A stretch of 64,000 bases of DNA from contig NZ_JACHGT010000021.1 of assembly GCF_014202425.1 (NCBI RefSeq), positions 29,884 through 93,883 on the forward strand, read 5' to 3'. Under the pieces are notes generated by a model. The model saw only the letters and a program-made list of their open reading frames with translations, was not told the DNA's origin and made no database searches. Positions 30,065 through 54,650 of this stretch are shown here, in pieces; position 1 is the first letter of the stretch, and every line of letters starts with the position of its first letter. This DNA comes from Phytomonospora endophytica. Lineage in GTDB: Bacteria > Actinomycetota > Actinomycetes > Mycobacteriales > Micromonosporaceae. The position numbers were made by a program, and so were the translations under genes.

Positions 30065-30216
30065 CGCGTTCCCGGCGCAGTTATCCGCCTCACATCGCCG
30101 GGCCGCCACCACCGTGTTGACCGTACGGATGATCCCGGATCACCTCAAAACCCAGTCGCCACCGACTGTTTCGGGCTGACGGACCCTTGACGCGCCCCAG
30201 TATCTTGCCTTTACAC

Positions 30217-33076: not shown

Positions 33077-33080
33077 CGCC

Positions 33081-33132
33081 GGGTCGCCTGGGTCGCCTGG
33101 GTCGCCTGGGTCGCCTGGGTCGCCTGGGTCGC
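33081..33132. repeat. 9-bp tandem repeat (GGGTCGCCT) x5.8
   Basis: Perfect head-to-tail copies read directly in the sequence. The array ends at the first base of element X. Confidence 0.85.
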
Positions 33133-35789: not shown

Positions 35790-36598
35790 GCCGCACCGCC
35801 GGGGGCCGGGTCGCGCATGACGTCGAGCCACGTTGCCTTACCGGCGATGAGGTCGGCCCAGGTGTCCCAGTAGGCCACGACGTCGGCCCACACATAGGGG
35901 AAGGTCAGCAGGGACGGCGAGGGCGCGTCCACGGCCGTGAGCGGCAGTGTCCACACCCGACGCGGGTCGTCGCCGGTCTTCGGCGCCTGCCGCGTCTCCT
36001 CCACGTCGCCGACGAGCCAGTACCGCGCGGGCCACCCCCACGAGGGGTCCGGGCGGATCAGCAGCACCGGCACGGCACACAGCGCGCGCAGCGCGGCGGC
36101 GGCGGAGTCGGTCACGGTGCGGGCGACCATTTCAGACTCGGGCTCTTGACGTACCCCGATTACGGCAATCGCGGTCGCCGACAGCATCGGGCGCAGCACG
36201 GCCGCCGACCGGCCGTAGGCCATGCCCTCCCAGTCCACGACCTGCCAGCGTTGCGCGCTCTCGGGGTCGGTGGGGTCCTGCACCCACGGGCACCCGTCAC
36301 TGTCGACGGTGACCGGCTCGCTCGTCGGTCCCGGCGTCGAGGCGTTCCCGTCGGTGTCGTACCCGACGGCGAAGTACTCCACGGGCTGTCCAAACGGGAC
36401 CTCGTAGTCCACGACGAGCGCCGGGCCGGAGACCTCGATGCGCCACCCGCCCCGGACCGGCACGGTGCCCGAGGAGTCTTGCCGGTAGAGGGTGATCGTG
36501 GCGTTGTCGGCGCCGGGCGTGACGGTGATCTCCACGCGCGGGCACGGATCGGCGTCTTCGTAGGGGATGCAGGTGGGCGCGGCCGGTGGCGTGGTCAT
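35786..36598 (-). CDS. Phage distal tail protein (Dit)-like
   Basis: Immediately downstream of the tape measure gene and of the expected size (270 aa). Confidence 0.4.
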   Translation of the reverse strand: MTTPPAAPTCIPYEDADPCPRVEITVTPGADNATITLYRQDSSGTVPVRGGWRIEVSGPALVVDYEVPFGQPVEYFAVGYDTDGNASTPGPTSEPVTVDSDGCPWVQDPTDPESAQRWQVVDWEGMAYGRSAAVLRPMLSATAIAVIGVRQEPESEMVARTVTDSAAAALRALCAVPVLLIRPDPSWGWPARYWLVGDVEETRQAPKTGDDPRRVWTLPLTAVDAPSPSLLTFPYVWADVVAYWDTWADLIAGKATWLDVMRDPAPGGAA

Positions 36599-38706: not shown

Positions 38707-39093
38707 TCACACTCCCCTTACGGTGTCGCAGATGGACTGCATGTCTCGGAAAAACGCGGCCAGCCACAGCGCCTCGGTCGCGCGGGCGGCGTCGGACAGG
38801 AACGGTTGCGCGGCGATGCCCCGGCGCGGCCATCCCCAGTGGATCGGCGCGGCGTAGGGGACCCGGGCGCCTCCGGCGCGCACCACGGCCGCACCAACGG
38901 CGCGGTTGCCGCGCACGGACGCGGCGAGCCGTCCCGTGCGGCGGGGCGCGGCGGCGGCCCCGGCGCGAGCGACGATCGCGGCGGCGGCGGCGTTGGCGTC
39001 CTTGAGGTCGGCGGCATCGGCCCCCGCCTTACGCAAGGTGCGCCGTAGCTGCGCGGCGCCGTCCACGTCGATCGTGAACGCCTCGCGGGCCAT
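38707..39093 (-). CDS. HK97 gp10-like tail-completion family protein
   Basis: Product MAREAFTIDVDGAAQLRRTLRKAG…PRRTGRLAASV…VPYAAPIHWGWP resembles the HK97 gp10 family. Confidence 0.45.
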   Translation of the reverse strand: MAREAFTIDVDGAAQLRRTLRKAGADAADLKDANAAAAAIVARAGAAAAPRRTGRLAASVRGNRAVGAAVVRAGGARVPYAAPIHWGWPRRGIAAQPFLSDAARATEALWLAAFFRDMQSICDTVRGV

Positions 39094-39776
39094 CACCCGC
39101 CCCCGCCGCCGGTGTAGGGCAGGGTCACAGACTTTGTGGCGGAGGCTCCACTCTGGCCGGTGACCTTGACGGTGAACGTGTTCGGCTCGGTGTAGAGGTG
39201 GCTGGCGGTTCCCGCGTCGGGGGTGTCGGTGGTGTCGTCGCCTTTGTCGCGGGCGTCGCCGAAGGCGATCGCGGCCGGGCCGCCGGAGACCACGGTGACC
39301 TTGACGGTCATGCGCGTGGTGTCGGTGGTGTCCTCCTCGGCGGTGAACACCGGGGCGGCGGGGAAGGCCCGGTCTACCTCCCCGATCACCGGAAGCTCCA
39401 GATCGGACGTGAGCTGTGCGGCCACGTCGCCGCCGATGTCGCCAAGACGGCATTGCACGCGCCCGGTGTAGGTCGGGCCGCCGTCGCTGTTGGGCGTCCA
39501 GGTGAAGGCCACGACCTCGGTTTCGTTGTCCCACAGGAAGTTGATGAACCCGTTGGGGTCGTCGAAGTCCTGTACAGCGGTGACCTTGAGCGTGCGGCCC
39601 GTCTTGAGCGTCGGGGCGTCGGAGTCGCCACAAAGGACCTCCAAGACTTCGCCGTCCTCCTCGTACTCCGTCGAGAGAGTGACGTTGGTGGGCTGGCACG
39701 AGAAGTCCACGGCGATCCCGCCGTCGGGGGTCAAGGTGAGCTTGCCCTTCTTGAGGCGGCTCTTGGTGATCGTCAT
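39093..39776 (-). CDS. Putative major tail protein with C-terminal Ig-like domain
   Basis: A 227-aa beta-rich protein with a Thr/Asp-rich C-terminal Ig-like repeat, in the major-tail position. Confidence 0.5.
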   Translation of the reverse strand: MTITKSRLKKGKLTLTPDGGIAVDFSCQPTNVTLSTEYEEDGEVLEVLCGDSDAPTLKTGRTLKVTAVQDFDDPNGFINFLWDNETEVVAFTWTPNSDGGPTYTGRVQCRLGDIGGDVAAQLTSDLELPVIGEVDRAFPAAPVFTAEEDTTDTTRMTVKVTVVSGGPAAIAFGDARDKGDDTTDTPDAGTASHLYTEPNTFTVKVTGQSGASATKSVTLPYTGGGGG

Positions 39777-40615: not shown

Positions 40616-41896
40616 TCACTTCCCGGCCTTCTGGGTCTCGACGGGCGGTACGACGGCGGGCGCGATCTTGCAGAAGCCCTTGGGCTCCAGGAATCCCGAC
40701 GCGGCATAGCCGCCGTAGGCGACCTCCACACCGAGGATGGACGGTTCGATGGCCTGGATCAGTCCCAACTGGACCTCGTAGTACTCGTACAGGCTCTTGG
40801 ATCCGACGATGACGGTCTTCTCCGGCAGCAGCGGCGCCACGATGCGCGGCGCGTTGAACACGTCGCCGGAGAAGCTCGTGATGTCCTGCGTTCCGCCGTT
40901 GCCGTCGGCGCGGGGCGGGAGCATCAGCCGGGCGGTGTCACAGACGGCGCCCATGATCGCCCACATGTCCACCGAGCACCAGATGGTGTCGGGCATGCGC
41001 TGACCACCGGCGTACGCCTTGGCGGCGGCGGAGTAGAGCGCCGTCGCCCACCCGGCGAGATCGTTGGTGGCCACGGTGACCGACTGCGTGATCCCGGTCG
41101 CGAACGCGGTAGCGGTCGCCGCTTCGGTGGCCAGGCCGTACTGGTCGGCGAGGTCGGTCGTGAGGATGTTCCACGCGCCGGGGTCGGTCCAGTCGATGTC
41201 CTGCCGGGACACGTTGACCACGCCGCCGTAGGTGGCCTTGGGGAACTCCAGGCTCTCCACCTTGAGCGCCTGCGAAGCAAGCTCGGTCTTCTCCGCCGTC
41301 TGGACGCCCACCTTCGTGTGCTGGGTGACGATCGGACGGGAGAACGTCTTGCCGGGGATGTTCCCCAAGGGACGGACACCAAGGCTGGTGATGAGTGGGC
41401 GGCGCGCGTCGATGATGTTGATGACCGGCCCGACGATCGGCGTCGGGAGGATGCCGGGCGTCTCGGCCGTGGTCATCTTCGCCACGGCGCGAGTCAGGCG
41501 CTCGGCGGCGGCCGGATCGCGGGCGATGCCGATCTTCGGCGCACCGAAGGAACGCACCCGGTCGAGGAGCAGCGCACCGGGCGAGTCGTAGACCGGACCG
41601 TCCTCAGCGGACGGCGCGGCCCGCTCGGTGACCCGTGCGCCGCCGCCGACGGCGCGCGTGGTGGCCGTGTCGGCGCTGGCGCGCAGGGTCTCGAACTCGC
41701 GCAGCGGCTTGAGCTGCGCGTCGATCGCGGCGATGCGTTCACGGGCGGCGACTAGGTTGCCCTGCTCGGCGTCGACGAGGTCGCGCCCGCCGTCGTCTTC
41801 CACATGGGACAGGAGGTTGTCGACGAACTCGACCTGCGCTTCGCGCTGCTCTTCCAGGCGCGAGATGACCGGGTTGGGCGTGCAGTTGGTGACCAT
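40616..41896 (-). CDS. HK97-fold major capsid protein
   Basis: A 426-aa protein with an N-terminal delta/coiled-coil segment and HK97-like core. It follows the prohead protease gene. Confidence 0.75.
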   Translation of the reverse strand: MVTNCTPNPVISRLEEQREAQVEFVDNLLSHVEDDGGRDLVDAEQGNLVAARERIAAIDAQLKPLREFETLRASADTATTRAVGGGARVTERAAPSAEDGPVYDSPGALLLDRVRSFGAPKIGIARDPAAAERLTRAVAKMTTAETPGILPTPIVGPVINIIDARRPLITSLGVRPLGNIPGKTFSRPIVTQHTKVGVQTAEKTELASQALKVESLEFPKATYGGVVNVSRQDIDWTDPGAWNILTTDLADQYGLATEAATATAFATGITQSVTVATNDLAGWATALYSAAAKAYAGGQRMPDTIWCSVDMWAIMGAVCDTARLMLPPRADGNGGTQDITSFSGDVFNAPRIVAPLLPEKTVIVGSKSLYEYYEVQLGLIQAIEPSILGVEVAYGGYAASGFLEPKGFCKIAPAVVPPVETQKAGK

Positions 41897-42033: not shown

Positions 42034-42681
42034 TCAGGTGGTGAGGTTCGCGCGCCAGTTCTGCCACTCCGCCAGTGCCGGGCGCGGCGCCGGGGCGGGG
42101 CCGGTGCGTTGTCCGCCGACGGGGCGCCCTGCGGTGCGCACGAGGGTGACTCCGGCCCCGGCGTAGGCCGGGACGGCGCACAGCGAGGTCTCCAGTAGAC
42201 GGCCCTCGTGATGGACGACCCGCGCGAGCGAGTCTCGCGTGGCGGGGTCGACGGTGGAGCGCCCGGCCATCGGCGCGAACCCCACCGACAGGCCGGTGAG
42301 CAGGCCCTCGCGCGCCAGCCGCCCGGCCTCCTGCGCACGCGGCGAGGAGTCGAGTTCCCACGCCCCGTACAGGCCGTCCAGCTCTTCACGCCACGCGATG
42401 GCGCGCCCGATGGGGAATGCGTCGTGGTCGTGCCACAGCATCAGCGGCAGCGCGCGGGCCGCCTCCTTCGTGGACTTGCGGAACGCGCCGGGCGCGATCG
42501 TCTCGAAGTACGTGCCGTACTCGTCGCTGACCTGCTCGGCCACGCCGTAGGGAACGGCGCGGCCTTCCAGGACGACCGGCGCGTCGCGCTCTTCGCGGAC
42601 GGTCTCCAGTGGAGCCATGCGAATCCGCGGGGAGCCGTAGACGCGCAGCTCCGGCGCGAACGTGGTGGGTGCGCTCATGAC
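42034..42681 (-). CDS. HK97-family prohead protease
   Basis: Product MSAPTTFAPELRVYGSPRIRMAPLETVREERDAPVVLEGRAVPYGV… matches the S78/U35 protease pattern. Lies between the portal and capsid genes. Confidence 0.7.
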   Translation of the reverse strand, partial: VMSAPTTFAPELRVYGSPRIRMAPLETVREERDAPVVLEGRAVPYGVAEQVSDEYGTYFETIAPGAFRKSTKEAARALPLMLWHDHDAFPIGRAIAWREELDGLYGAWELDSSPRAQEAGRLAREGLLTGLSVGFAPMAGRSTVDPATRDSLARVVHHEGRLLETSLCAVPAYAGAGVTLVRTAGRPVGGQRTGPAPAPRPALAEWQNWRANLTT

Positions 42682-43853
42682 TGCTCGGTCTCCTCGATCT
42701 GTGCTCCGCCAACGGTTTCGGTCTCCGGCGGCGGCGTGTCGGATGTGGACGGTGCGGCATTCGCCGGCACCGGGGACAGTCCCATGTAGGCACGCGCCTC
42801 CTCGGTGGTCATCAGCCCGCCCGAGACGGCCTCGGTGAGGGTCGTGACGGTGGTCGACATGTCGTCGGCGAGGAGCTGTTGACGGTCGAGCCGGAGCGAG
42901 TGTCCACGCGGGACGAGCTGTGCGGTCCACGTCTGCTCGAAATCGGTCATGATCGGCTCCAGCGTGGTCCGCAGGAGGTTGAGGTACATCGGCCCCGGGG
43001 ACCGGTAGGTCAAGGACTCCGAGGGCGCGCCCAGCCAGTACGGATCGAGAGAGAACGCGTTGGCGATGTCGACGAGCGTCGCCGACCGCGCGGCGGTGAG
43101 TTCGGCGTCCGAAGGGGACCACGACAACGGGAGGATCTGCGTACCGGCGGGGAACACCCCGGGCTCGCGGCGCGGCCCGCCGAACAGGTCGGTCCACCGC
43201 TGCTTAGCGGCAGTCGCCTCCTCTTCGGACAGACGCGGGTTCGGCGCGATCACCGCCACCGACGGCACGGCGCCGTCGGCGAGCGCCGACGCCTCGTACT
43301 CCTCCTCTGCGATCGCCCGGGACAGGGTGCGCATGTGCTGCTCCACGACGCCCACACCCCGCGCGGGACACCACGAGTCGGCGCCGCGCTGCACGTGCAC
43401 GATGTCGGCGGCCGGGATCTCCTTGCCGCGAGCCCAGTAGCGCGGCCGGGCGTAGTCCTCCTGTGCGCACTCGATCGCCACCCATGCAGCGGGCAGCCAC
43501 CGCAGGGCGGCGGGGTAGCCGTAGAAGTCGCGGGCGGAGATGTAGGCCACCGCGTTGCCGTGCATGAGGTAGTCGTCGACGAGCTGCCCGAACAGCCACG
43601 CGAACGAGCGCGCCGGGTCCGGCTGCTCCAGGAACCGCGTGCGCGGCAGCGGCTGCGTTCCCTTGTAGTCGTCCAAGGTGGTCTGCCGGATCATCCCCGT
43701 GATGAGCAGCAGTGCACGGGCCACACCCGGCACCGTGCGCGCCCGGTCGGCGTCCATCCACGGCAGCACATCCGGCCAGACGACGCGGTTGTACGGCGAC
43801 AGTCCACCCCGGATCGGCGCGGCGGCGCCCGAAGAGCTTTCCATGATCCACAC
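42675..43853 (-). CDS. Phage portal protein (HK97 family)
   Basis: A 392-aa protein directly downstream of terminase, with an acidic C-terminus. Confidence 0.7.
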   Translation of the reverse strand: MWIMESSSGAAAPIRGGLSPYNRVVWPDVLPWMDADRARTVPGVARALLLITGMIRQTTLDDYKGTQPLPRTRFLEQPDPARSFAWLFGQLVDDYLMHGNAVAYISARDFYGYPAALRWLPAAWVAIECAQEDYARPRYWARGKEIPAADIVHVQRGADSWCPARGVGVVEQHMRTLSRAIAEEEYEASALADGAVPSVAVIAPNPRLSEEEATAAKQRWTDLFGGPRREPGVFPAGTQILPLSWSPSDAELTAARSATLVDIANAFSLDPYWLGAPSESLTYRSPGPMYLNLLRTTLEPIMTDFEQTWTAQLVPRGHSLRLDRQQLLADDMSTTVTTLTEAVSGGLMTTEEARAYMGLSPVPANAAPSTSDTPPPETETVGGAQIEETEQS

Positions 43854-43867
43854 CGTACCGCGATCTA

Positions 43868-45586
43868 CTAGGCGGCATAGTAGGAAGCATGACGAACACG
43901 CCCACGGCTCCGCATCCGCAGCGCTCCGCCGACAAGCACAAGGCGCGCCAGGCCCTCACGCTCGCGATGACCGGCCTGTCCGCTGCGACGGTCCTTGACG
44001 TCCTCATTGGGCACGAGCTGGCGCGGCGTGGGCTCGAACTCGGCGAGGGCGCACACCTCGAACTCGTCTCGATGGTCGCCGGAGTTGTCGACGACGAGTT
44101 GCGCACGCTTGAACTCTCCGCCCGCGCGCCGCTCGCGGCGGCGGCGCGCGCGTCCTAACAGGATCGCGAACTCTGGCAGCTCGGCCGGTGCGTTCTCCAC
44201 GGCCCATGCGGCGAGGGTGACGGCCACGAGCGGCGCGATGTCTCCGGCGCTGCCCCGGCGTCCCCATGCCCATCCGTCTCCGACGGAGCGCTTCGCGGCG
44301 ACCTCTGCGGCGGCGTCGAGCGCCGGGTGAGCAGCGAGGCGCACCCCGCCGTCGCGCATTCCGGCGAGGAGTCCGGCACACGCACGGGTGTACTCCGTTG
44401 CGGACGTCTCGTGCAGGATCTCGGCGAGCCCGTCATGCCGCCGGACTTCGTCGGTCACGTGCGCGATCGGTGAGCGCGAGTCGGCGACCGCCCACCGTGG
44501 ACGCCACCGCCCGGCGAGTTCGAGGAGGCGCGGCACCACCCACGCCGTGCCCTCCCGGCGGTCGGCGACCTCGGCGACCAGGCGCCCGGAATCGTCGCGC
44601 CAGCCGATACCGATCGTGGCCGACGACCCGTCCACCGGACCGTCCCATGTGAGCACCGGCCCGCCGGGTTCGGGCTGGTCGGGTTCGCGTTCGCGGGCGG
44701 CCTCCCACAACTCGGCGGGGATGGCGAGTTCGGCGGTCTGTGTCCAGCGGTTGCCGTAGGCGCGCGCGAACTCGCCGGGCGGGAGCAGCTCGGCGGCCGA
44801 CGCGATCGCGTCGGGGCGCAGCGTGTAGCCGCGCGCGGGGTGGTTCTGATACACGGTCTCGACGTCGGTTGCGGCTCCGTCCGGAAGGGACCATTCGAAG
44901 TACGCCACTGTGGACCGGCGGGTCCCCGCCGGCCCCGGGTCCGCGGTGGCGTCCCGTCCCTTGTCGACGAACTCGCGCAGCCACGCACTCGTTGCGGTGC
45001 CAGCGGTCGAGACGATCCACAGTTGAGCGTCGGTCGTCGTCTGCGTCGGGATGATCGCCTGCGCCAGCTCCGCGCCGCGCACCGCGTCGAAGGCCCACGC
45101 CTCGTCCACCGACACGAGGTGCGTCGTCTTCCCGTGCAGCGCCTCGGGACCCGGTGAGAACGGGCGCAATGTGGACGCCAGGGCCGTGTATTTCAGCTCT
45201 TCAGAGCCGTTGGACATGCGCGAGGTGATCAGCGTCGAGAGTGGAGAGGAGTCCACGGCGTCGACGTGCTCAAGCCAGAGGTCGCGGGCGTCGGCGCGGG
45301 TCTGCGCGGTCATCCACACCCGGCGGCGGCGCCCCGTCAGGCATCGGTGCGCCGACAGCGCCCCGAGAAGCAGCGATTTACCCGCCTGTCGCGGCACCGT
45401 GACCACCACGACCCGGTACGCCCACTGGCCGGTGGGCGTGATCTCCAGGGCCGTGTCACAAACCTGCCGCTGCCACGGCATGAACGGCGCCCCGAGCGCC
45501 GTCGACACCTTCGCGACCTTCCCGCCGAAGGTCAGCCGGGACGGGTCACGGGCGGTGGCGTAACGCGGCGGGACCGGGCACAGCAT
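43868..45586 (-). CDS. Terminase large subunit
   Basis: Walker A-like VTVPRQAGKS, an ATPase plus nuclease two-domain organisation, and its position. Start codon uncertain. Confidence 0.7.
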   Translation of the reverse strand: MLCPVPPRYATARDPSRLTFGGKVAKVSTALGAPFMPWQRQVCDTALEITPTGQWAYRVVVVTVPRQAGKSLLLGALSAHRCLTGRRRRVWMTAQTRADARDLWLEHVDAVDSSPLSTLITSRMSNGSEELKYTALASTLRPFSPGPEALHGKTTHLVSVDEAWAFDAVRGAELAQAIIPTQTTTDAQLWIVSTAGTATSAWLREFVDKGRDATADPGPAGTRRSTVAYFEWSLPDGAATDVETVYQNHPARGYTLRPDAIASAAELLPPGEFARAYGNRWTQTAELAIPAELWEAAREREPDQPEPGGPVLTWDGPVDGSSATIGIGWRDDSGRLVAEVADRREGTAWVVPRLLELAGRWRPRWAVADSRSPIAHVTDEVRRHDGLAEILHETSATEYTRACAGLLAGMRDGGVRLAAHPALDAAAEVAAKRSVGDGWAWGRRGSAGDIAPLVAVTLAAWAVENAPAELPEFAILLGRARRRRERRAGGEFKRAQLVVDNSGDHRDEFEVCALAEFEPTPRQLVPNEDVKDRRSGQAGHREREGLARLVLVGGALRMRSRGRVRHASYYAA

Positions 45587-45914
45587 CCGGCTTCCCCAGA
45601 TCCTCCAACAACTCCGTCAACCGGTCCGGCGCCGACGCACCCCGCGCGGCCGGAGTCAGCCCGAGATCGGCGAGCGTGGCGCGCAACTCGGCGGCCAGCT
45701 TCGCCGCCGCCCACCGGTCGTCATCCAGACAGGCCGCGTCGAGCAGCCGCGCCAGCGTCCGCGCGGTCGCCGCAAGCGGTCCATCCGCGACGGTCTGAAT
45801 CGTCTTCGCTCGCTGCCCTGCTGTGATCGCCGCGCCGACGGCGCGCTCAGTTCGGCCCGCCGGACGCTGCTTGAGCCCGGGGAGCGCGTCGCGCTGCGCC
45901 GACTTCTTCGCCAT
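45546..45914 (-). CDS. Putative terminase small subunit
   Basis: A 122-aa basic/helical protein immediately upstream of the terL gene. Confidence 0.35.
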   Translation of the reverse strand: MAKKSAQRDALPGLKQRPAGRTERAVGAAITAGQRAKTIQTVADGPLAATARTLARLLDAACLDDDRWAAAKLAAELRATLADLGLTPAARGASAPDRLTELLEDLGKPDAVPGPAALRHRP

Positions 45915-45993
45915 GCCGACAGCGTCTCATGCCAACATGCGCATACCTGCATGTTTGCTCGAGGTCTGGTCGACATAGGACGGCCGGGTCTGG

Positions 45994-46224
45994 CTATCCG
46001 TCCCGGTCGTCTTCGTCGTCGGGTTCTGCCCACACCAGGCCGATGTCCTCGCCGTCCGGTCCGAACTCGCGGACAGTGGCCCACCCGGGCCGTTCGTCGG
46101 GCGGGAGAAGCCCCAGGGTCTTGACGTGCTCGGTCAGCTCGCGCGTGCCCATGGTTTCGCTGAGCGCCTTGAGTTCGGCGTGTAGTGCCTCGTCGGTGGT
46201 GACCGGTGTCCCGTCAAGACTCAC
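45994..46224 (-). CDS. Small acidic protein, candidate immunity partner of upstream deaminase-like gene
   Basis: A 76-aa product whose start overlaps the stop of the 46214 gene by 11 nt. Confidence 0.3.
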   Translation of the reverse strand: MSLDGTPVTTDEALHAELKALSETMGTRELTEHVKTLGLLPPDERPGWATVREFGPDGEDIGLVWAEPDDEDDRDG

Positions 46225-47044
46225 TGCCGCGCTCCCGTTCGATCGCTTCCCCGGTGCCCGGGTAGATCCACACGCGGGTGCTTCCCCGCTTCGTCACCTC
46301 GTGAACGTACAGCGTCTTTCCTTCTGGGATGAGCGCGGACAGGTTCGGGTCGCACCCGTCGGGGTAGTTGCACGGCTTCATGTTGATGTACACGACGGCC
46401 TTGGTCATGTTCTCGTCCTGGCGCAGGCGGGCGGCGGCGTGCGCCTCGATGTGGCGACGCATCCGGGGGTAGGACCGCCACGGGTCCACAATGTCCTTCC
46501 CGTCTCCGGCCGGGCCGTCGTCGTCGGCTTCGTGGACCGGCCCCAGCGGGCGGCCCTCGCCGTCGTAGACGCGGCCGACGGCGATCCGGCGGCCGTTGGC
46601 GTTGCGCTTGCCGACGTGCGGCTTGATTTCCGAGACGGCCTCCGGATGAGACGCCAGCGGCCGGAACCCTTGCAGCACAGGCGTTCTCGGCTCCGGCGTC
46701 CTTTCGGCCGGCTGCGGCCCGGTGTCTACGGTGGACGGCACCCCCGAATCCACAATGGCGGCGTCGGCGTAGATCTGGCGCAGGTACTCGGTGAACGTCT
46801 CCCCGGCGCCGACAGAGCCCACGTCGGCGCGCTCCAGGACTTCCCCCACGGTCTCCAGCCGGGCCAGTGACGCCGAGACCCGGTCGTTGCCCGCGCCCTC
46901 GGTCGCGTCGGTCAGTTCGCCGCGCGCCTGGCTGTACTTCTCCCGGGCGCCGCGTAGTAAACGCTGCGCCTCTGACAGCAGCTCAAGTGCGCGCCGTGCT
47001 CCGTTCTGGAATTCCTCGAAAGGCCCTGTCACGCGGGCAATCAT
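46214..47044 (-). CDS. Two-domain protein: N-terminal helical (WXG100/LXG-like) region + C-terminal deaminase-fold domain (HxE…PCx5C), putative nucleic-acid deaminase toxin
   Basis: ATG 47042-47044. The C-terminus …YPRMRRHIEAHAAARLRQDENMTKAVVYINMKPCNYPDGCDPN… has the zinc-deaminase catalytic signature, H-x-E and then PC-x5-C about 23 residues later. Confidence 0.5.
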   Translation of the reverse strand: MIARVTGPFEEFQNGARRALELLSEAQRLLRGAREKYSQARGELTDATEGAGNDRVSASLARLETVGEVLERADVGSVGAGETFTEYLRQIYADAAIVDSGVPSTVDTGPQPAERTPEPRTPVLQGFRPLASHPEAVSEIKPHVGKRNANGRRIAVGRVYDGEGRPLGPVHEADDDGPAGDGKDIVDPWRSYPRMRRHIEAHAAARLRQDENMTKAVVYINMKPCNYPDGCDPNLSALIPEGKTLYVHEVTKRGSTRVWIYPGTGEAIERERGSES

Positions 47045-47099
47045 GCAGGACGGCGCGCGTCCCCGGCAGGCCGCGCGCCGTTTCCTCACTGTGGAAGGT

Positions 47100-47321
47100 C
47101 TACACCGGTCGTTCCTCTTCGCCGCGCAGCACCGCGCGCGGGTTCACACCCGCCTGCGCGAGCCGCCGGGTCGCCTCGTTGCGCTTCTCGCACGGCCAGC
47201 CCCCGCAACCGGCCGTGCACCTCCTCGAATCGGGGTCGGACGCGTCATACCACCTGCTTCGGTGCTCGCCCCAGATCTCGTACCACTCGGCGGAACTCTT
47301 GCCGCCGAATGTCGTCGTCAT
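47100..47321 (-). CDS. Small Cys-containing phage protein (73 aa)
   Basis: ATGA overlap with the upstream gene. Product MTTTFGGKSSAEWYEIW…CTAGCGGWPC…. Confidence 0.4.
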   Translation of the reverse strand: MTTTFGGKSSAEWYEIWGEHRSRWYDASDPDSRRCTAGCGGWPCEKRNEATRRLAQAGVNPRAVLRGEEERPV

Positions 47322-47491
47322 GCCGGTGCCTTGCGTTCGTCCACAAGGGGGTCCACGCCGAGTTTGAGCATCGCGTCGCGGACGTCGGCGCGCCAGCGAC
47401 AGGGGTACGACGAGGCGCTGCATGAGCACCGGCCGCCCTTGATCCGCTGGTGTTTCTGGTATTCGTCCCAGAGGGTTTCGATGTCGCTCAT
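47318..47491 (-). CDS. Small phage protein (57 aa, below ORF-track cutoff as an independent start)
   Basis: ATGA overlaps at both ends. Product MSDIETLWDEYQKHQRIKGGRCSCSASSYPC…. Confidence 0.4.
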   Translation of the reverse strand: MSDIETLWDEYQKHQRIKGGRCSCSASSYPCRWRADVRDAMLKLGVDPLVDERKAPA

Positions 47492-47880
47492 GACGGCGGC
47501 GCCTCCGGCTCGCGCCAGCGGGACGGCGTGACGTTGAGGTCCAGCCGGGTGTTGTCGACCAGCCAGTACGAGACCGTCACCGGCCGGAAGGCCGTCAGCC
47601 TGTCCCGGAAGTCCTCGATGGACGTCGTGAACCGCGACCAGGCCCCGGGTTCCTTGATCTGCGGGCTGACGGCGTTGACTTCGGTCTCCAGCCACGCAAC
47701 GGCGTCATCGGCGGTGGCGCACGTCTTCGCGCGAAGCTCCCTCGGCTTGTTCAGCCACTCCGATGTGATCAGCGGCGGGAGGTTCGTCAACGGGTTGCGG
47801 CGGTCGGCGTCGGTGGCCTTGTTGAGCACGTCGCCGTGTCCGCGCCAGCGGTGGCAGATCCATTGGTCCTCGATGGTCAT
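47488..47880 (-). CDS. Hypothetical phage protein (130 aa)
   Basis: Coding bias. First gene of a translationally coupled trio. Confidence 0.4.
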   Translation of the reverse strand: MTIEDQWICHRWRGHGDVLNKATDADRRNPLTNLPPLITSEWLNKPRELRAKTCATADDAVAWLETEVNAVSPQIKEPGAWSRFTTSIEDFRDRLTAFRPVTVSYWLVDNTRLDLNVTPSRWREPEAPPS

Positions 47881-47967
47881 GGCATCCCCTGTGTGTGGTG
47901 GTGGAAGGCCCCGGCGGCTCGGAGGGGCGCCGCCGGGGCCGGTGTTGCGATCGGGGCGGGAAGGGGC

Positions 47968-48195
47968 CTACAGGCCCTGATAGCTCTGCACGAACGCGTC
48001 CAGCTCTTCGGCGCTGAACCGCAGTTCGGGGCCGTCGGGGTTCTTCGTGTCGCGCAGGGCGTAACCGCCGCCGGTGATCGGCGCGTACTCCACACAGGAG
48101 TCCTGCGTCCCGGGGTCGGACTGGTCACCGGTGTTGCCGCCGCAGGCGCGGACGTAGCCGCCGGACAGGTCACGGCTGTACAGATCGCTGCTCAT
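47968..48195 (-). CDS. DUF397 domain protein
   Basis: DUF397 signature …YVRACGGN…CVEYA…DTKNPDGPELRFSAEELDAFV…. Confidence 0.7.
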   Translation of the reverse strand: MSSDLYSRDLSGGYVRACGGNTGDQSDPGTQDSCVEYAPITGGGYALRDTKNPDGPELRFSAEELDAFVQSYQGL

Positions 48196-48788
48196 CGTGA
48201 TCTCCTTGGTGTAGGACGTCAGCCTCGGCCGACGTCGGTTCCGAACCTGGCCGGGCGCCGATGCTTCCTAGGGCCGAAGCGCCCGGCCAGGGGCTCGCGT
48301 TGGACTGTCCGCAGGGGACGCGAGGGCTCCGGGCGGTCGTGGGGACCGGCGCCGGGAGACGATCGACCGTGGTGCGTGTGGACAGTGCGGATACGTTGTG
48401 CCGCAGGCACATTCGAACCCGCCGCCTTCCGCCACGAAGTACAGATGTCGTCCGCCGTCCATCGCAGCTCCCTGCGGGTTGGACCGGGACACGGGCAGGT
48501 GGAAACCCGAAAAGAGGCCGCTCGGCCCCGATCAGGAAAAAGGGCCCGCGCCCCGGCGTGTGTACACCCGGCGCGGCGGGCACTGAGCCACCCCGCGCCG
48601 GGGAACTTCGGGACGAGGAAGGGGAGAGCGCCCACCAACGGGAATCCGGTAACCGACAACGTTCTCCCCTCCCTCCGTCATGTCGCCCGGGTGCTGACTC
48701 CCGAGGCTTCCGCCCTGCTCAGGGACGGTGTACAAGGGACAGTACGAAAGGAACGGTGCAGAAGCCACGACTCAGCGTGCAAGACACG

Positions 48789-48807
48789 TTGTCCCACCAC
48801 GGGACAA
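48789..48807. promoter_or_regulatory. Palindromic operator candidate TTGTCCC-N5-GGGACAA upstream of XRE gene
   Basis: Perfect 7-bp inverted repeat about 70 bp upstream of the 48878 start, in a 680-bp divergent intergenic region. Confidence 0.4.
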
Positions 48808-48877
48808 GCAAGATGGGGAGACGACTCCCCCACGCCAAGGGTTCTCATGTCGCGCAGTGATGCGGCATCCTGTGCTG

Positions 48878-49705
48878 ATGCCTGGACCGATCCTCACGCG
48901 TCGCCAGCTCGGCCGCCGTCTGCTCAACCTCCGTGAAGTCGCCGGAATCTCAGCGGGAGCCATCGCGCGAACGAAGCTCATGAGCACCAGCAAGCTTTAC
49001 CGGCTTGAGGCCGGAGAGATCGTCGAACCCGCCTGGGTCGAGGTCAAGGAACTGTGTGACATGTACGGCCAGAACCCCGCCAGCGATCTGAGCAAGGAAC
49101 TCGTCAGGATGGCAAAGGCGTGCCTAGAGGCCGGGTGGTGGGAGCCGTTCGGTTCCGGTGTGCCGAAATGGTTCCAGCTCTACCTTGAGCTTGAGCAGAT
49201 CGCCCACACGATCCGGACCTATGAGGTCGCCTACGTCACAGGTCTGTTGCAGACGGAGGCGACCATGCGAGCCCTGCTGTCGGCGAACCCAGCCCTTCAA
49301 GCTGAAGCCGTTGACAGCACAGTGGACCTTCGACTGAAGCGGCACCTGAACTTCTTCGCACGTATCCCGCTCCCCAGCCTTGAACTGGCGATTGACGAAG
49401 GCGCACTGCGCCGCGTCATCGGTGGCCCCGCAGCGCACGCCGAACAGCTTGAGCGCCTCTACACGATGAACAGCCGCCCGAACGTTCGCGTCTTCGTCCT
49501 GCCCGCGTCCGTCGGCGCCTATGCCGGGCAGGGGCAGCCGTTCACCCTGCTGGAATTCCCCGATGACCTAGATCCGGATGTGGTGTACTCGGAGGCTGCA
49601 ACGGGAGCGCATTACGATGAGTCGGCCGAAGCCTTCGCGAGCCGTAGGGCTACCTTCGGAAGCATGATCGCGCAAGCAGTGCCACTTGAGGAGTACCAGC
49701 TATGA
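48878..49705 (+). CDS. XRE-family HTH + DUF5753 regulator (only plus-strand gene of the prophage; repressor candidate)
   Basis: N-terminal HTH (LTRRQLGRRLLNLREVAGISAGAIA…LYRLEAG) and a DUF5753-like C-terminus. ATGA overlap with the downstream DUF397 gene. Confidence 0.7.
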   Translation: MPGPILTRRQLGRRLLNLREVAGISAGAIARTKLMSTSKLYRLEAGEIVEPAWVEVKELCDMYGQNPASDLSKELVRMAKACLEAGWWEPFGSGVPKWFQLYLELEQIAHTIRTYEVAYVTGLLQTEATMRALLSANPALQAEAVDSTVDLRLKRHLNFFARIPLPSLELAIDEGALRRVIGGPAAHAEQLERLYTMNSRPNVRVFVLPASVGAYAGQGQPFTLLEFPDDLDPDVVYSEAATGAHYDESAEAFASRRATFGSMIAQAVPLEEYQL

Positions 49706-49881
49706 AGCCTTCCCCCTGGCGCAAGTCCAGCCGCAGCGGTGGGAATCAGGGCCAGTGCGTCGAGGCCCGCACCAACGCGGGCCGTTTCGAGCTTCGCGAC
49801 AGCAAGCTTGCCGACGGCTCGCCGATCCTCGAACTCAGCGCCAACGACTGGCGCGGCTTTCTCAGCACCGTTACCCGCTGA
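49702..49881 (+). CDS. DUF397 domain protein (59 aa; absent from supplied ORF track)
   Basis: Product MKPSPWRKSSRSGGNQGQCVEARTNAGRFELRDSKLADGSPILELSANDWRGFLSTVTR is a textbook DUF397 partner of XRE-DUF5753 regulators. Confidence 0.7.
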   Translation: MKPSPWRKSSRSGGNQGQCVEARTNAGRFELRDSKLADGSPILELSANDWRGFLSTVTR

Positions 49882-50059: not shown

Positions 50060-50764
50060 TCACCAGCGCGACGAGGGCGCCGTAGGCGCGTCGGTGGGTA
50101 GGCGGGGCGGGTTGGTGTACCAGTCGGCGACGTACCGCGCCCACTCGCGGGGCCGCTCGTCGGCGGCGCGGCGTAGGCACTCATCACGGCCGGGGTCCAC
50201 GAGTTCGAACACGGCGCCCGCGCGCACGTACGCGGCGACCTGCCCGCGCCCCGGTGCGGTGTGCACGATGTAGACGGTGCCGCCCGTGGGCGGGGTGGCC
50301 AGCAGCGAGCGGACGACGGCGGCGCGGGCGACGCCAGCGAGCCGCATGGGCAGCCGGTCACGGCCGTAGCGCTCGCCGCCGAAGCACTCCACCAGGTCGT
50401 CATAGTCCACGATGGCGTCCCCCTGCCCGGCGAGGTCGCGGGCGCGGGTGGTCTTCCCGCCGCAGGGCGGGCCGACGACCACGACCAGGGCGCCGGGGCG
50501 GCGCACGAGGGCGCCGGACTTCGTGTTGCAGGTCGAGCACGCGGCCCGCAGGTTCGCGGGGTCGTCGGTGCCGCCGTGGGCGCGCGGGATGATGTGGTCG
50601 ACGGTGCGCGCGTACCGGCCGCACACCCGCCCGTCGGCGCCGGGGACGAGGCACGTCCACCCGTCGCGGTCGAGGATGAACGCGCGCAAGCGGCGCCAGG
50701 CCCTTGTGGAGCCCGACGCCGCCAGCAGAGACATCGCGTGGTCTATCCGAAGAGGATCGAGCAA
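50060..50764 (-). CDS. HNH endonuclease fused to P-loop NTPase/kinase-like domain
   Basis: HNH motif (CGRYARTVDHIIPRAHGGTDDPANLRAACSTCNTKSG), then Walker A GPPCGGKTT and a kinase-like fold. Confidence 0.6.
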   Translation of the reverse strand: MLDPLRIDHAMSLLAASGSTRAWRRLRAFILDRDGWTCLVPGADGRVCGRYARTVDHIIPRAHGGTDDPANLRAACSTCNTKSGALVRRPGALVVVVGPPCGGKTTRARDLAGQGDAIVDYDDLVECFGGERYGRDRLPMRLAGVARAAVVRSLLATPPTGGTVYIVHTAPGRGQVAAYVRAGAVFELVDPGRDECLRRAADERPREWARYVADWYTNPPRLPTDAPTAPSSRW

Positions 50765-51457: not shown

Positions 51458-52333
51458 TCAAGCGGCGGCGGGCAACCCACCGTCTTCGTCCACTTCGGGC
51501 AGCCCGGCGAAGTGCTCCGGGTCGAGCCGGTTGGGGCCTCGGTGGTACGGGTTGGGACGGTCGGCGGGTCGGGAGATCTCCGGAGGTCCGACCGACGCGA
51601 ACGCGTCGGCGGGTTCTTCGTCTTCCCCGTACCGTCCCGTACCGTACGAAGCCGGATAGCTCGCGTCCCCGTGGTCGGCGACCTCGGCCCCGTGGTCCGC
51701 CCGTGGTCGGCGAGCGCCGATCTCGGCCAGGGTCAGCAACCGCATCCCGGCTTCCCCGGGTGTGCGCTGCCCCTTGCGCTGGTTGCACTCGCGGCAGGCG
51801 GTGACCATGTTGGACGCCCCGGCGGCGGTGTGTGGGTCGACGTGGTCGAATTGCTGCCCCGTCGCGCCCCTGGTGTCCTTGGGGTTGGTCTCCCGGGCGC
51901 AGTAGCGGCACATCCCGCCGTCCCGCTCGCGCAACTGGCGACGCAACCCCCGGTCGTCGCGCTCGGCGGCCTGCCGGTTCTTAACGGCGGCCTCGACTGC
52001 GTCGGGCTGGAAGTCCAGGTAGTCGTGTAGCAGGTAGTCGAACCCGAACGGCCACCGGTTGCGGTGCACTTCCATGCACCGGCACCTGTCGCCGCGCTGA
52101 TGCAGTAGCGGCGCCTTGCCGTGCTTTGTGGACACCAGCATGTCCAGCAGCGGCGGCGTGCTGAACTCCCGCACCATCGCGCTGGTAAGGAACCCGTTGG
52201 AGTAAGCCAACGACGCCTCCCCCAGCAGCGCCGACCACGCCCCGAACAGCGCCAAGAACTTCTGCGGCGAGGTCGCCAGGACCCGGAACTTCATGTTCCT
52301 GGCGGCCTCGGCCTGCTTCTTCACCCACACCAT
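51458..52333 (-). CDS. HNH endonuclease domain protein
   Basis: C-terminal HNH motif (CRYCAR…FDHVDPHTAAGASNMVTACRECNQRKG). Confidence 0.6.
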   Translation of the reverse strand: MVWVKKQAEAARNMKFRVLATSPQKFLALFGAWSALLGEASLAYSNGFLTSAMVREFSTPPLLDMLVSTKHGKAPLLHQRGDRCRCMEVHRNRWPFGFDYLLHDYLDFQPDAVEAAVKNRQAAERDDRGLRRQLRERDGGMCRYCARETNPKDTRGATGQQFDHVDPHTAAGASNMVTACRECNQRKGQRTPGEAGMRLLTLAEIGARRPRADHGAEVADHGDASYPASYGTGRYGEDEEPADAFASVGPPEISRPADRPNPYHRGPNRLDPEHFAGLPEVDEDGGLPAAA

Positions 52334-52759
52334 TCAGGAGCCGTCCTTTCTCGATCGGCGCCACGGGCGCCAGCGGGAGGATTGCTTGGGCACGGCGGCG
52401 TGTTTGCCCCATGCGGAGAACGTGACCCTGATGCCGTGCATGTGGACCTCGGCGATGCGAAAGCCGGGGTCGGGGTGGAAGGTGTGGGCGGCCGGTGCAC
52501 CAATCTGCGGGAGCACCGACCAGGCGTCTAGATCGGACTGTGTGCGTAGCCGGACGCGCGCGGTGCCGTCGCCAAGAGACACCAGCGCGGCCGGGAGCGG
52601 CGCGCCGTCGGCGACCAGTGCGGCCAGTGACGCCAGTAGCGCCGCCCACCGGTCGGAGTCGGTTACATCGTGGCCGCGCCGTTCGTCGGCGAGCCGGGCG
52701 AGGGCGTAGGCGGCTCCCTGTAGGGGGCCGTACACCTCGGCGCGGTGAACACCGGTCAC
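52334..52759 (-). CDS. Hypothetical phage protein
   Basis: A 141-aa ORF with coding bias, in the early region. Confidence 0.4.
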   Translation of the reverse strand: MTGVHRAEVYGPLQGAAYALARLADERRGHDVTDSDRWAALLASLAALVADGAPLPAALVSLGDGTARVRLRTQSDLDAWSVLPQIGAPAAHTFHPDPGFRIAEVHMHGIRVTFSAWGKHAAVPKQSSRWRPWRRSRKDGS

Positions 52760-53033
52760 CGTGGACCGTTCCCGGGCTTGCGGCGTCGCTGTGGAGCGAT
52801 CGGCGGCAGGGGCGGCGGGTTGGGGAAGGTGAGCGCGGGTCGCTCGGGTGCGGCGGTGGTCGCGCGGTGGACCATCGCGGCTATGGCCGACTCGGGGACG
52901 CGGAAGGCGCCGCCGGACGACGGGCGGACGGCGGTCAGGACTCCCGACTTGATCCAGCCGTACACAGTGGACCGGCTGGCCTTGAAACGTGCTGCAACGT
53001 CCTTGACCTTCCAGTATGGGTCTTGCGTGGACA
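52756..53033 (-). CDS. Excisionase/MerR-like helix-turn-helix DNA-binding protein (Xis candidate)
   Basis: TTG start behind GGAAG. HTH segment WKVKDVAARFKASRSTVYGWIKSGVLTAV. Adjacent to the integrase gene. Confidence 0.5.
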
Positions 53034-53414
53034 ACGTGGCCTGCTTCCTGCGGTTTCGGGCGCGCCCGCCGATCGGACGCGAGAAGTCCACAGAGTGTGC
53101 CAGTTCGGTCACCGACCGTCGATCTTGGACAGAACGTGTTTTCTCGTTCTGGTGAGAAACGGTGAGAATCTCACCGATCAACCCCCTTTTTTGACCCCAG
53201 AAATGGGTGTAAATATTGATACGTTTCTGGTGAAACCGGCTCATTCTTCGCATTAGTTGTATGCGTCGCACAAGGGTCGTTGTGGGGATCCTGAAGACTT
53301 GATATTTCCGGGCAGGGACTCGCGTCTAACGGCGTGTCGCTTCCCCACGGGAAACGCTTCCCAACGGGAAGCGCCCCCGCCGACGAGTCGGCGGGGGCGC
53401 GGTAATGGGTTGGG
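53034..53414. promoter_or_regulatory. int-xis intergenic control region
   Basis: The most AT-rich stretch of the window (53161-53290). Tandem palindromes TTCCCCACGGGAA and CTTCCCAACGGGAAG (53339-53372) and hairpin CGCCCCCGCCGACGAGTCGGCGGGGGCG (53377-53404) lie downstream of int. Confidence 0.45.
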
Positions 53415-54650
53415 TTAGGCGGCGGCGGTCTCCGGCCTCTGCCGGGCCGACAGGCGCGCCAGGAGCGCCGTGGACACTGTCGCCACGGCGGCGGTATCAA
53501 CGGTGTCGTCATGGATGTAGGTTCGCGTGCTGCGCTCGCTTGAGTGCCCGATCACGGCGGCCAGGGTCCGGCCGTCCACGCGCGCCTTGCGCATCTCCGT
53601 GGCGTAGGTGTGCCGGTAGTCGTGCCCGGTCAAGGTCTCAAAGTCGGGAATGCGCGCCCGCTCGGCGGCCTTGCGCATGCGGTTGACGAACGTCCCCCGG
53701 TGCAGGTGGCGCCCGTCGCGGTCGGACAGCAGCACCGCGCCCCGGTGCTTCCCCTCGGCGCGGCCGGTGATCAGCGGCGCCAGCTCCGGCGCGTAGGGCG
53801 CCATGCGGAAACCCGCCTTACTCTTCGGGCCGACCTGCAACACGCGCTTGCCCGTGCCGTCGGGCTTGAACACCCACCGCACCTCGAATGACGCGATGTC
53901 CTCGTGAACGGACTCGCCGACCAGCAGCCCCGCCCACTCGCTGTAGCGCAGGCCCGTGGTCACCGCCACGACGGCCGGGTCATAGGCGTCCGGGCCCATG
54001 AGTGCCAGCTCATAGAACAGCGCTTCAAGGGCGCCCAGCCCCAACGCACGGCCCTCCCGCCCGTCTCCGCAGGGCTCGGGCACCAGGGACAACGGGTTGC
54101 GCTCCAGGACGGCCGGGGAGCCGTCCAGGCCGGGCCGGGAGAGATCATCGAAGACCGGTTCGAGCAGCCCCCGCCGGTAGGCGCGAACCGTCGTCGGCGC
54201 CAGTTTCCCACGCTCGCCGCCGACAGAGAGCAGATGGTCTTGCCACCCCTTCAGAACGGCCCCGGTAGCCTCCTGCGGCCAGTAGGCCGCGAGACCGTAT
54301 ACCGCATTGTCGATATGGGCGGCGGCGTTTCGCCGATACTGCGTCGCGCTGTACGCCTTGATACGGCCGTTGCGCTCGCGGTCGTCGATGCTGGCGTGAA
54401 TGAGTTCGCCCAGCTTCGGGCCGACCCCGACCGCGCCCGGGACGAGGTAGTCAAAGCCCATCGCGCGCAACTGCGCACGGTTCGGCCACCGATTCCGATT
54501 GAGGTCCACCAGCGCCTTGAAACGCTCCGCCTCGCCCGCGTCGGTGAACGTCTGAGATTGCGCCGCGCCGTCCCGCGTACCGCCCTCGTTCCATTTCACC
54601 CGGAGCGAGGTCTCACCGTTTTTACGCAGGCGTGACTCTATGCTGGCCAT
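53415..54650 (-). CDS. int: Tyrosine-type phage integrase
   Basis: Catalytic R (TGLRYSE), HxxR (HDYRHTYAT) and Y (STRTY) motifs. The SAM-like N-terminal domain is present. Confidence 0.85.
   Translation of the reverse strand: MASIESRLRKNGETSLRVKWNEGGTRDGAAQSQTFTDAGEAERFKALVDLNRNRWPNRAQLRAMGFDYLVPGAVGVGPKLGELIHASIDDRERNGRIKAYSATQYRRNAAAHIDNAVYGLAAYWPQEATGAVLKGWQDHLLSVGGERGKLAPTTVRAYRRGLLEPVFDDLSRPGLDGSPAVLERNPLSLVPEPCGDGREGRALGLGALEALFYELALMGPDAYDPAVVAVTTGLRYSEWAGLLVGESVHEDIASFEVRWVFKPDGTGKRVLQVGPKSKAGFRMAPYAPELAPLITGRAEGKHRGAVLLSDRDGRHLHRGTFVNRMRKAAERARIPDFETLTGHDYRHTYATEMRKARVDGRTLAAVIGHSSERSTRTYIHDDTVDTAAVATVSTALLARLSARQRPETAAA

Follow-up and report, generated by a model that had tools for sequence, protein, structure and literature searches.

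A 64,000-nucleotide stretch of DNA from Phytomonospora endophytica (hereafter the window) contains, at positions 45,994-47,044, two overlapping genes that encode a 276-residue protein with a C-terminal deaminase domain and a 76-residue acidic protein. We believe that the two genes probably make up a toxin-immunity cassette of the polymorphic-toxin type that travels as mobile cargo on a prophage-like element of ~21.6 kb, and we assign this reading a probability of about 0.72. The arrangement is that of a polymorphic toxin locus, with a toxin domain at the C-terminus and a candidate immunity gene directly downstream. All numbering refers to positions within the window, and the labels L001-L020 denote related loci outside it. 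The features of the cassette are listed below.

46214-47044, minus strand: predicted toxin gene, 276 residues, with hairpin, proline-rich linker and DddA-like/SCP1.201 cytosine deaminase (from the open reading frame (ORF) list and the sequence)
46748-47023, minus strand: two-helix hairpin at the N-terminus, residues 8-99, presumably serving in trafficking or interaction
46646-46747, minus strand: proline-rich linker, residues 100-133, without secondary structure (predicted local distance difference test (pLDDT) 52-73)
46235-46645, minus strand: deaminase domain, residues 134-270
46451-46453, 46445-46447, 46370-46372 and 46352-46354, minus strand: predicted catalytic codons of H198, E200, C225 and C231, respectively
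45994-46224, minus strand: immunity or inhibitor candidate, 76 residues, from GTG 46224 to the stop at 45994-45996, overlapping the toxin stop

The deaminase domain and the acidic partner

At the level of sequence, the C-terminal domain is an SCP1.201/DddA-like zinc-dependent deaminase, because the Pfam match, the conservation of catalytic residues and the fold match to DddA all agree. Residues 133-257 match the Pfam family PF14428 (SCP1.201/DddA-like) over profile positions 5-130 of 137, scoring 72.2 bits where the cut-off is 25 (E = 5e-20), and all 60 of the 60 relatives analysed match it too. A word-indexed protein search gave few matches, whereas the family came to light when 1.84 billion cluster representatives were searched exhaustively with HMMER, with 498 relatives at E <= 0.001, mostly of 240-270 residues and matching end-to-end. 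These relatives were counted as clusters at 50% identity, of which ~500 have the full-length architecture. The family alignment comprises 60 sequences with 23-67% identity to the window toxin. Residues E200, C225, C231, G263 and G265 are invariant in this alignment, and conservation is at least 90% at H198, N221, A204 and P240. The zinc-deaminase set of [HD]xE and two cysteines is complete in the window toxin, and the spacing between the two cysteines ranges from C-x5-C to about C-x12-C among relatives. Most of the clade signatures described by Iyer et al. (PMC3239186) are also present, including P134, which opens the helix 134-143, a long insert at residues 162-197, and the conserved N221. 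The residue two positions past E200 is His (H202), unlike the K/Q of the clade signature, and most of the subfamily reads HxEGH.

The AlphaFold2 model of the toxin, built from the 60-sequence alignment, has a mean pLDDT of 90.7, with values of 96-98 across the deaminase domain, and the closest fold of the modelled domain is that of DddA. When the 60-sequence family profile was compared with PDB sequences, it matched UmbC1 (8w20_A, E = 4.6e-8), the TALE-deaminase fusion TOD6 (E = 2e-5) and DddA (E = 8e-4). Only this profile succeeded; searches of the PDB sequences with the single sequence or with a 3-sequence profile found no deaminase. Some relatives carry the NCBI label 'DddA-like double-stranded DNA deaminase toxin', and the NCBI entry 'hypothetical protein Pen01_60270' (Phytomonospora endophytica, Micromonosporaceae) is identical to the 276-residue protein. 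No match to the toxin was found in PADLOC, NCBIfam or PHROGs. Two other class assignments were considered and rejected: membership of the DYW clade, for which there was no DYW match, and a deaminase of nucleotide metabolism, which belongs to a clade other than PF14428.

The toxin ORF runs from ATG 47044 to a TGA stop at 46214-46216. An alternative start, GTG 47089, would add 15 residues and give a protein of 291 residues; homologues open at an equivalent 'GPFEEF', which supports ATG 47044 as the favoured start. The N-terminal hairpin consists of helices 8-47 and 54-99, joined by a turn reading T-D-A-T-E-G-A-G from T45, and the family pattern at the turn is near A-[AT]-[TD]-[DE]-G-[ST]. The linker that follows varies in length and sequence across the 60-sequence alignment.

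The gene of the 76-residue protein shares 11 nt with the toxin gene (46214-46224, GTGAGTCTTGA), and its GTG start is closely preceded by a GGGAG motif of the Shine-Dalgarno kind. The protein is acidic, with an isoelectric point (pI) of 4.08 and 20 Asp and Glu residues against 6 Lys and Arg. In every locus examined, an ORF overlaps the toxin stop by 4-11 nt. Homologues of the partner directly follow the toxin in L001 (77% identity), L002/L003, L005 (Longispora albida), L006 (a viral contig from IMG/VR), L007 (Haloglycomyces albus), L009 (Salininema proteolyticum), L011 and L012, and they were found at this position in 9 of the 9 other loci tested. Small overlapping ORFs occupy the same position in L013, L015, L016 and L020. 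A hidden Markov model built from five partners recovers the others tested with E-values of 2e-19 to 1e-3, so the partners make up one family. All tested partners are acidic (pI about 4.05-4.4), and their identity drops in step with that of the toxins. No match to the 76-residue partner was found in Pfam (E <= 0.1), NCBIfam, PHROGs or PADLOC. The 76-residue acidic protein most likely neutralises the toxin.

The conservation of the pair confirms that the arrangement of toxin and partner is a genuine feature: the PF14428 match (E = 5e-20), the recurrence in ~500 clusters and the partner conserved beside the toxin in independent loci rule out chance ORFs. The initial annotation, made from the sequence without database searches, had read a 276-residue ORF with H-I-E and, 23 residues later, PCNYPDGC. 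Both are indeed present as H198-I-E200 and P224-C225-N-Y-P-D-G-C231. Its assignment to the deaminase fold and the SCP1.201 clade also held, as Pfam and the fold comparison both found the fold and both cysteine ligands are invariant in the alignment, and its coupled immunity-like gene is borne out by the conservation of partner and overlap across loci. The epithet 'DYW-like' has to be dropped, since the match is to PF14428. The N-terminal part, described as a helical half, is helical, but residues 8-99 make up only about a third of the protein.

Some partner loci deviate from this pattern. In L011 (10873-11453), two tandem partner paralogues of 109 and 82 residues follow one toxin gene, resembling the 'polyimmunity' of polymorphic toxin loci. 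The partner homologue in L009 (10810-11373) has 187 residues, with a DUF397-like C-terminal extension (Pfam E = 0.0029, below the cut-off; profile positions 2-53 of 55). In L005 (9935-10810), the toxin homologue contains one in-frame stop directly after the hairpin and ahead of the linker; its deaminase domain is otherwise intact, as is the immunity ORF downstream. The gene could be a pseudogene or split in two, or the stop could come from a sequencing error.

Related loci and regulator neighbours

All 12 of the 12 related loci lie in phage or mobile-element contexts, recognisable by genes for tyrosine or serine integrases, DNA polymerase A, gp49, PD-(D/E)XK nucleases, tail fibres, Bro-N or ArdC. 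Synteny with the window is seen in L001, which shares the divergent XRE gene, the cassette and terS, so that cassette and flanks are in common. In L006 and L002, the cassette is the only part in common with the window, and for this reason we conclude that the cassette is an accessory unit (a 'moron') that moves between unrelated actinomycete phage backbones. The cassette is not beside the terminase in L002, L006, L007, L009, L011, L013, L015 or L016. A tblastn search of 50,697 GenBank phages and 72,556 plasmids (PLSDB) returned nothing for the window toxin or its relatives P0023 and P0037. Scans of IMG/VR yielded one viral contig (L006, 21.2 kb), and further IMG/VR scans with other relatives and with a DNA motif yielded none. 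NUDIX hydrolase genes lie near the cassette in L002 (2217-2753), L007 (6625-7095), L015 (3755-4165) and L020 (5885-6445), directly upstream of it in L015 and L002. HicAB genes lie near the cassette in L013.

The hairpin occurs with a second kind of C-terminus. In P0146 ('MGAFEEF...') and P0148 ('MGPFEAF...'), the same hairpin precedes a different C-terminal region that ends in a hydrophobic membrane anchor. This is the only alternative kind seen behind the hairpin, and it contains no known toxin domain. On this comparison of sequences, the hairpin appears to be a modular unit. P0146 and P0148 have 224 residues each and are followed by an overlapping ORF of ~145 residues (L017, 8001-9108; L018, 451-1559); each may form, with the ORF that follows, another kind of effector-partner pair that uses this N-terminal module. 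DUF6244 is matched by 5 relatives of the window toxin (best E = 3e-6).

A recurrent neighbour of the cassette is a pair of regulator genes resembling WhiJ (XRE-DUF5753) and BldB (DUF397) of Streptomyces. In the window, L007/L008, L009/L010, L011 and L012, both genes lie no more than about 2 kb from the cassette. Only the XRE gene is in evidence near the cassette of L001, giving six loci with XRE-DUF5753 and five with DUF397 when the window is counted. In L017, a WhiJ/BldB-like pair adjoins P0146, the hairpin protein with a non-deaminase C-terminus. The pairs outside the window are located as follows.

L007, 8874-9837: WhiJ/BldB-like pair
L009, 8581-9520: WhiJ/BldB-like pair
L011, 8853-9883: WhiJ/BldB-like pair
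L012, 1616-2775: WhiJ/BldB-like pair
L017, 9105-10126: WhiJ/BldB-like pair

These observations suggest that the WhiJ/BldB-like pair is functionally linked to the hairpin-effector cassette, a link for which we found no earlier report. In Streptomyces, WhiJ paralogues regulate a neighbouring growth-inhibitor gene and BldB paralogues counteract them; WhiJ9, for example, directly activates its neighbour iosA (PMC10294661). By analogy, the XRE-DUF5753/DUF397 pair may control the expression of the cassette, the prophage switch, or both. The loci described here resemble the WhiJ-BldB-AbaA/IosA loci of Streptomyces (PMC10294661) and other XRE-DUF397 pairs (PMC6262351, PMC10364602) in that XRE-DUF5753 and DUF397 stand beside a variable 'cargo' that inhibits growth or development. 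They differ in that the cargo is a DNA deaminase with an inhibitor candidate instead of AbaA or IosA, and in that the loci are on phages or mobile elements. The recurrent pairing offers a testable idea of what these common Streptomyces-type pairs control on mobile elements.

A broader proposal, which we regard as tentative and rather doubtful, is that the cassette is the effector half of a four-gene conflict module, not described before, composed of a WhiJ-like XRE-DUF5753 protein, a BldB-like DUF397 protein, a hairpin-led effector and a small coupled neutraliser. In such a module, the effector would be a DNA cytosine deaminase here and a membrane-anchored protein elsewhere, and the WhiJ/BldB pair would gate toxin production. 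If true, this would give the abundant and enigmatic XRE-DUF397 pairs a concrete 'cargo' role and would add a new family of ~76-residue natural inhibitors of SCP1.201 deaminases.

Neither the domain family nor the pairing of toxin and immunity is new in itself, and actinobacterial prophages are already known to carry such cassettes. New here are the hairpin leader family without WXG features and the family of ~76-residue acidic partners; the apparent restriction to phages and mobile elements is new too, as are the recurrent WhiJ/BldB-like neighbours.

Proposed mode of action and alternatives

In the mechanism that we propose for the toxin-immunity cassette, zinc would be held by H198, C225 and C231, and E200 would shuttle the proton. 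Where a cell lacks the partner, the enzyme would convert C to U in DNA, as do DddA and UmbC1, causing C-to-T mutations and lethal uracil-excision breaks. DddA (PMC7901873) and the toxin domain of UmbC1 (PMC11062931) are mutagenic cytosine deaminases by experiment. The majority of the PF14428 members assayed act on single-stranded DNA, and the Sdd/Ddd division is based on experiment together with structural clustering (bioRxiv 10.1101/2023.05.21.541555). In the producer cell, the 76-residue protein would be made from its overlapping start by coupled translation and would bind the deaminase one-to-one, covering its DNA-binding or active-site face as DddI and Sddi do. The toxin would leave the cell through a type VII (ESX)-like pathway of the host, with the hairpin as export module; this is the most likely route, and delivery is the least certain step. 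Once exported, it may serve the lysogen as a weapon against non-lysogenic relatives, a role that has been proposed for the prophage cassettes of Mycobacterium abscessus.

The closest characterised systems share parts of this scheme. DddA-DddI, the type VI effector and immunity protein of Burkholderia cenocepacia, and the wider Ddd/Sdd group have the same HxE motif and two cysteine zinc ligands, with the inhibitor gene directly downstream. However, DddA forms the C-terminal tip of a large toxin that the type VI system delivers, whereas the window toxin has 276 residues with a hairpin leader and is encoded on a phage. Its zinc knuckle is C-x5-C (up to about C-x12-C in relatives) instead of the C-x-x-C in the DddA-derived TOD6 chain. 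UmbC1, an umbrella toxin of Streptomyces coelicolor (PDB 8W20), is the solved-structure sequence closest to the family profile and is likewise an interbacterial toxin of an actinomycete. Unlike the window toxin, it has 1368 residues with ALF repeats and assembles into a secreted, lectin-decorated particle (PMC11062931); no Umb components, ALF repeats or HINT domain were found here. The prophage cassettes of M. abscessus (Dedrick et al. 2021, PMC8092301) have a helical leader, a variable C-terminal toxin and then an immunity gene, and their cargo varies between phages. Those toxins are of about 50 kDa, carry WXG-100 motifs, have an adjacent small ESAT-6-like gene and lie at attachment junctions (PMC8092301). 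In contrast, the toxin here is of about 30 kDa, has neither a WXG motif nor an ESAT-6-like neighbour, and lies beside the WhiJ/BldB-like pair and terS. Toxins linked to MuF or terminase genes (Zhang et al. 2012, PMC3482391; Iyer et al. 2011, PMC3239186) are similar in standing beside terminase and capsid genes of a prophage-like element. The deaminase case among them, AC5_0860 of Clostridium perfringens, belongs to the BURPS668_1122 clade of Firmicutes (PMC3239186); the window family is a different one, and its terminase adjacency is not conserved.

For the delivery step, we place type VII-like export first, at somewhat under even odds, because a hairpin, a linker and a toxin are followed by an immunity gene, and because of the precedent in M. 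abscessus. Type VII secretion has been named as a route for the SCP1.201 clade (PMC3239186), and prophage toxin-immunity cassettes with WXG100 leaders are expressed in M. abscessus lysogens (PMC8092301). A purely intracellular role in toxin-antitoxin action or abortive infection is possible with a lower share, given the mobile-element context and the XRE-DUF397 neighbours. Release linked to particles or lysis receives a small share, based on the terS adjacency, which is conserved only in L001, and on earlier proposals (PMC3239186, PMC3482391). These gradings concern the delivery step alone; as complete explanations, the alternatives are graded lower below.

Several observations weigh against the proposed mechanism, most of them at the export step. 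The hairpin has the size and shape of a helix-turn-helix on the WXG100 scale (~90-100 residues), and in this sense the resemblance to WXG100/LXG domains suggested by the initial annotation holds for shape; it does not extend to sequence. The window toxin has no WXG100 (PF06013) or LXG match in Pfam at E <= 0.1. WXG100 is matched by 3 of the 60 relatives with a best E of 0.22, and LXG is absent among the 25 families listed of the 65 matched by these relatives. The turn lacks WxG or LxG (it reads T-E-G-A-G), and a YxxxD/E motif is missing after the second helix; Y87-LRQ-I and Y92-ADA-A do not fit it. End-to-end matches of the family profile to PDB sequences include ESAT-6 (E = 0.036) and Staphylococcus aureus EsxA (E = 0.068), which speak for an export module, but both are sub-threshold and amid designed coiled coils, and helical hairpins resemble many unrelated structures equally well. 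No WXG100 partner, ESX gene or other secretion gene was found among the neighbour genes scanned. The cassette is also part of a string of minus-strand genes running into terS, terL and the structural genes, and it is divergent from the XRE regulator; if this regulator is the prophage repressor, the toxin would be made on induction and not in the lysogen. As for the partner, we found no likeness to DddI, Imm1 or Sddi by sequence or by fold, the fold being taken from a weak 2-sequence model whose fold search was uninformative. At 76 residues it is about half the size of known inhibitors such as DddI and Sddi (about 120-140 residues, PMC13034033), with no Pfam or PDB-fold match, and its 2-sequence structure model is of low confidence.

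The failure of the hairpin in all sequence tests for type VII secretion also favours an intracellular explanation, in which the deaminase is never exported and the cassette is a toxin-antitoxin, abortive-infection or superinfection-exclusion module. The deaminase would be kept inactive by the small acidic protein and freed inside the lysogen, for example by degradation of the inhibitor or through the WhiJ/BldB-like switch, so that the infected cell is killed or mutated or the element is stabilised. Consistent with this idea, all loci are phages or mobile elements, HicAB lies near the cassette in L013, and in L007, L009 and L011 the cassette is directly downstream of XRE-DUF397 and shares its strand, an arrangement like that of rexAB behind cI in lambda. 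XRE-DUF397 pairs have also been proposed to be toxin-antitoxin-like or to gate growth-inhibitor genes (PMC7159879, PMC10294661, PMC6262351). However, a hairpin, proline-rich linker and C-terminal toxin with a downstream and sometimes duplicated protector follow the syntax of polymorphic toxins, not that of typical type II toxin-antitoxin systems. The cassette has no DNA-binding antitoxin domain, neither protein matches a PADLOC defence model, and the occurrence of the hairpin on a membrane-anchored protein suggests a role in trafficking or localisation. As a full account of the cassette, we judge the intracellular explanation unlikely.

Considerably less probable is that the toxin is cargo of the phage particle or of lysis, made with the late genes, as the first part of the packaging operon, and either packed into capsids and ejected or freed at lysis like colicins or Shiga toxin. 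In the window and L001, the cassette directly precedes terS and terL and is read in their direction, delivery by 'phage DNA packaging' was proposed earlier for a deaminase toxin beside terminase or capsid genes (PMC3239186, PMC3482391), and a small element in which no lysis or replication genes can be recognised could be specialised in making particles. These points are offset by the eight loci with the cassette elsewhere, by the absence of a MuF or other head-targeting domain in the window toxin, with MuF also absent among the 25 families listed for the relatives, and by the lack of an obvious entry for a free 30-kDa protein into an actinomycete cell. Moreover, because of stable RNA hairpins and a relatively AT-rich 79-nt gap between cassette and terS, the cassette may be a transcription unit separate from terS. 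Least plausible, and given almost no weight here, is a non-toxic phage enzyme of nucleotide or DNA metabolism (dCMP/dCTP-type or DNA-modifying) with an unrelated or regulatory small ORF. Phages do encode nucleotide deaminases (PMC3239186), and the cassette has NUDIX genes nearby in L002, L007, L015 and L020, but the domain fits the toxin clade PF14428, with only weak matches to dCMP_cyt_deam in 4 of the 60 relatives (best E = 0.0046). Its nearest characterised relatives are interbacterial DNA deaminase toxins, and a toxic enzyme would require just such an acidic partner, strictly conserved and coupled to it in translation.

If the proposed toxin-immunity reading is correct, a DNA-mutating toxin of the interbacterial type is exchangeable cargo in an actinomycete phage lineage outside mycobacteria. 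DNA deaminase toxins of the SCP1.201 clade have given rise to mitochondrial and compact nuclear base editors, for which natural inhibitors are off-switches. The cassette would provide a compact deaminase together with an inhibitor candidate that has about half the size of the known inhibitors and is unrelated to them.

The prophage-like element

The element extends approximately over 33200-54800 (about 21.6 kb, no strand assigned). Its gene order along the minus strand is integrase, xis-like HTH_17, two HNH genes, the WhiJ/BldB-like switch, the cassette, TerS, TerL, portal, capsid and tail. The features are listed below.

53415-54650, minus strand: integrase
52756-53271, minus strand: HTH_17 xis-like protein
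51458-52333, minus strand: HNH protein
50060-50764, minus strand: HNH and AAA protein
49702-49881, plus strand: DUF397 partner of the XRE regulator (Pfam DUF397, E = 9e-16)
48728-49705, plus strand: XRE HTH_31-DUF5753 regulator (Pfam DUF5753, E = 1.4e-42; HTH_31, E = 1.4e-9)
47968-48195, minus strand: small BldB-like protein (DUF397), whose gene opens the minus-strand unit with the cassette (Pfam E = 1e-12)
47488-47880, minus strand: ORF of 130 residues, no family match (from G+C content at third codon positions (GC3) and frame analysis)
47100-47429, minus strand: Cys-rich ORF of 109 residues from GTG, no family match (GC3 and frame analysis), probably in the same transcription unit as the cassette
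45546-45914, minus strand: small terminase TerS, 79 nt downstream of the cassette (PHROG 15169, E = 1.3e-11; Pfam Terminase_6, E = 5.6e-5, below the cut-off)
43868-45586, minus strand: large terminase TerL (PHROG 9, E = 8.5e-55)
42675-43853, minus strand: portal
40616-41896, minus strand: major capsid protein
39093-39776, minus strand: major tail protein
36595-38160, minus strand: tape-measure protein
34626-36598, minus strand: tail proteins

The presence of terminase, portal, capsid, tail and tape-measure genes together with an integrase bears out the earlier description of the deaminase as prophage-encoded. The same annotation had called a place between the packaging and early modules unusual. 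The adjacency to terS is real, here and in the closest relative, L001, but the cassette lies elsewhere in other phages. Because toxins beside terminases were noted in 2011-2012 (PMC3239186, PMC3482391), the position is not as unusual as was claimed. A suggested role as anti-defence cargo found no support.

No attachment-site repeat of at least 13 nt was found at the ends of the element, and its borders are therefore approximate. Host-like genes stand at the left end (SPFH/Band_7 at 30963-33038 and inositol monophosphatase at 29176-30093). Since neither lysis nor DNA-replication genes can be recognised in the element and clear attachment-site repeats are missing, 'prophage-like element' is the safer name, and it may be a defective prophage or another particle-producing element.

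No sigma-70-like promoter was found in 45400-49000. Two stable RNA hairpins are predicted on the minus strand, one just before the toxin ATG (47040-47105, -32.7 kcal/mol, z = -2.65) and one across the terS start (45910-45998, -37.3 kcal/mol, z = -3.2), the latter in a region that is relatively AT-rich for the genome. Directly outside the integrase, a plus-strand gene (54849-59831) encodes a 1660-residue protein with DUF3686 ('ATPase involved in DNA repair', E = 3.6e-221), DUF7902 and AAA+ regions and no PADLOC match. At the left edge of the element, the intergenic region 33077-33132 contains a tandem repeat of a 9-bp unit (CGCCTGGGT) in 6.3 copies with 97% matches.

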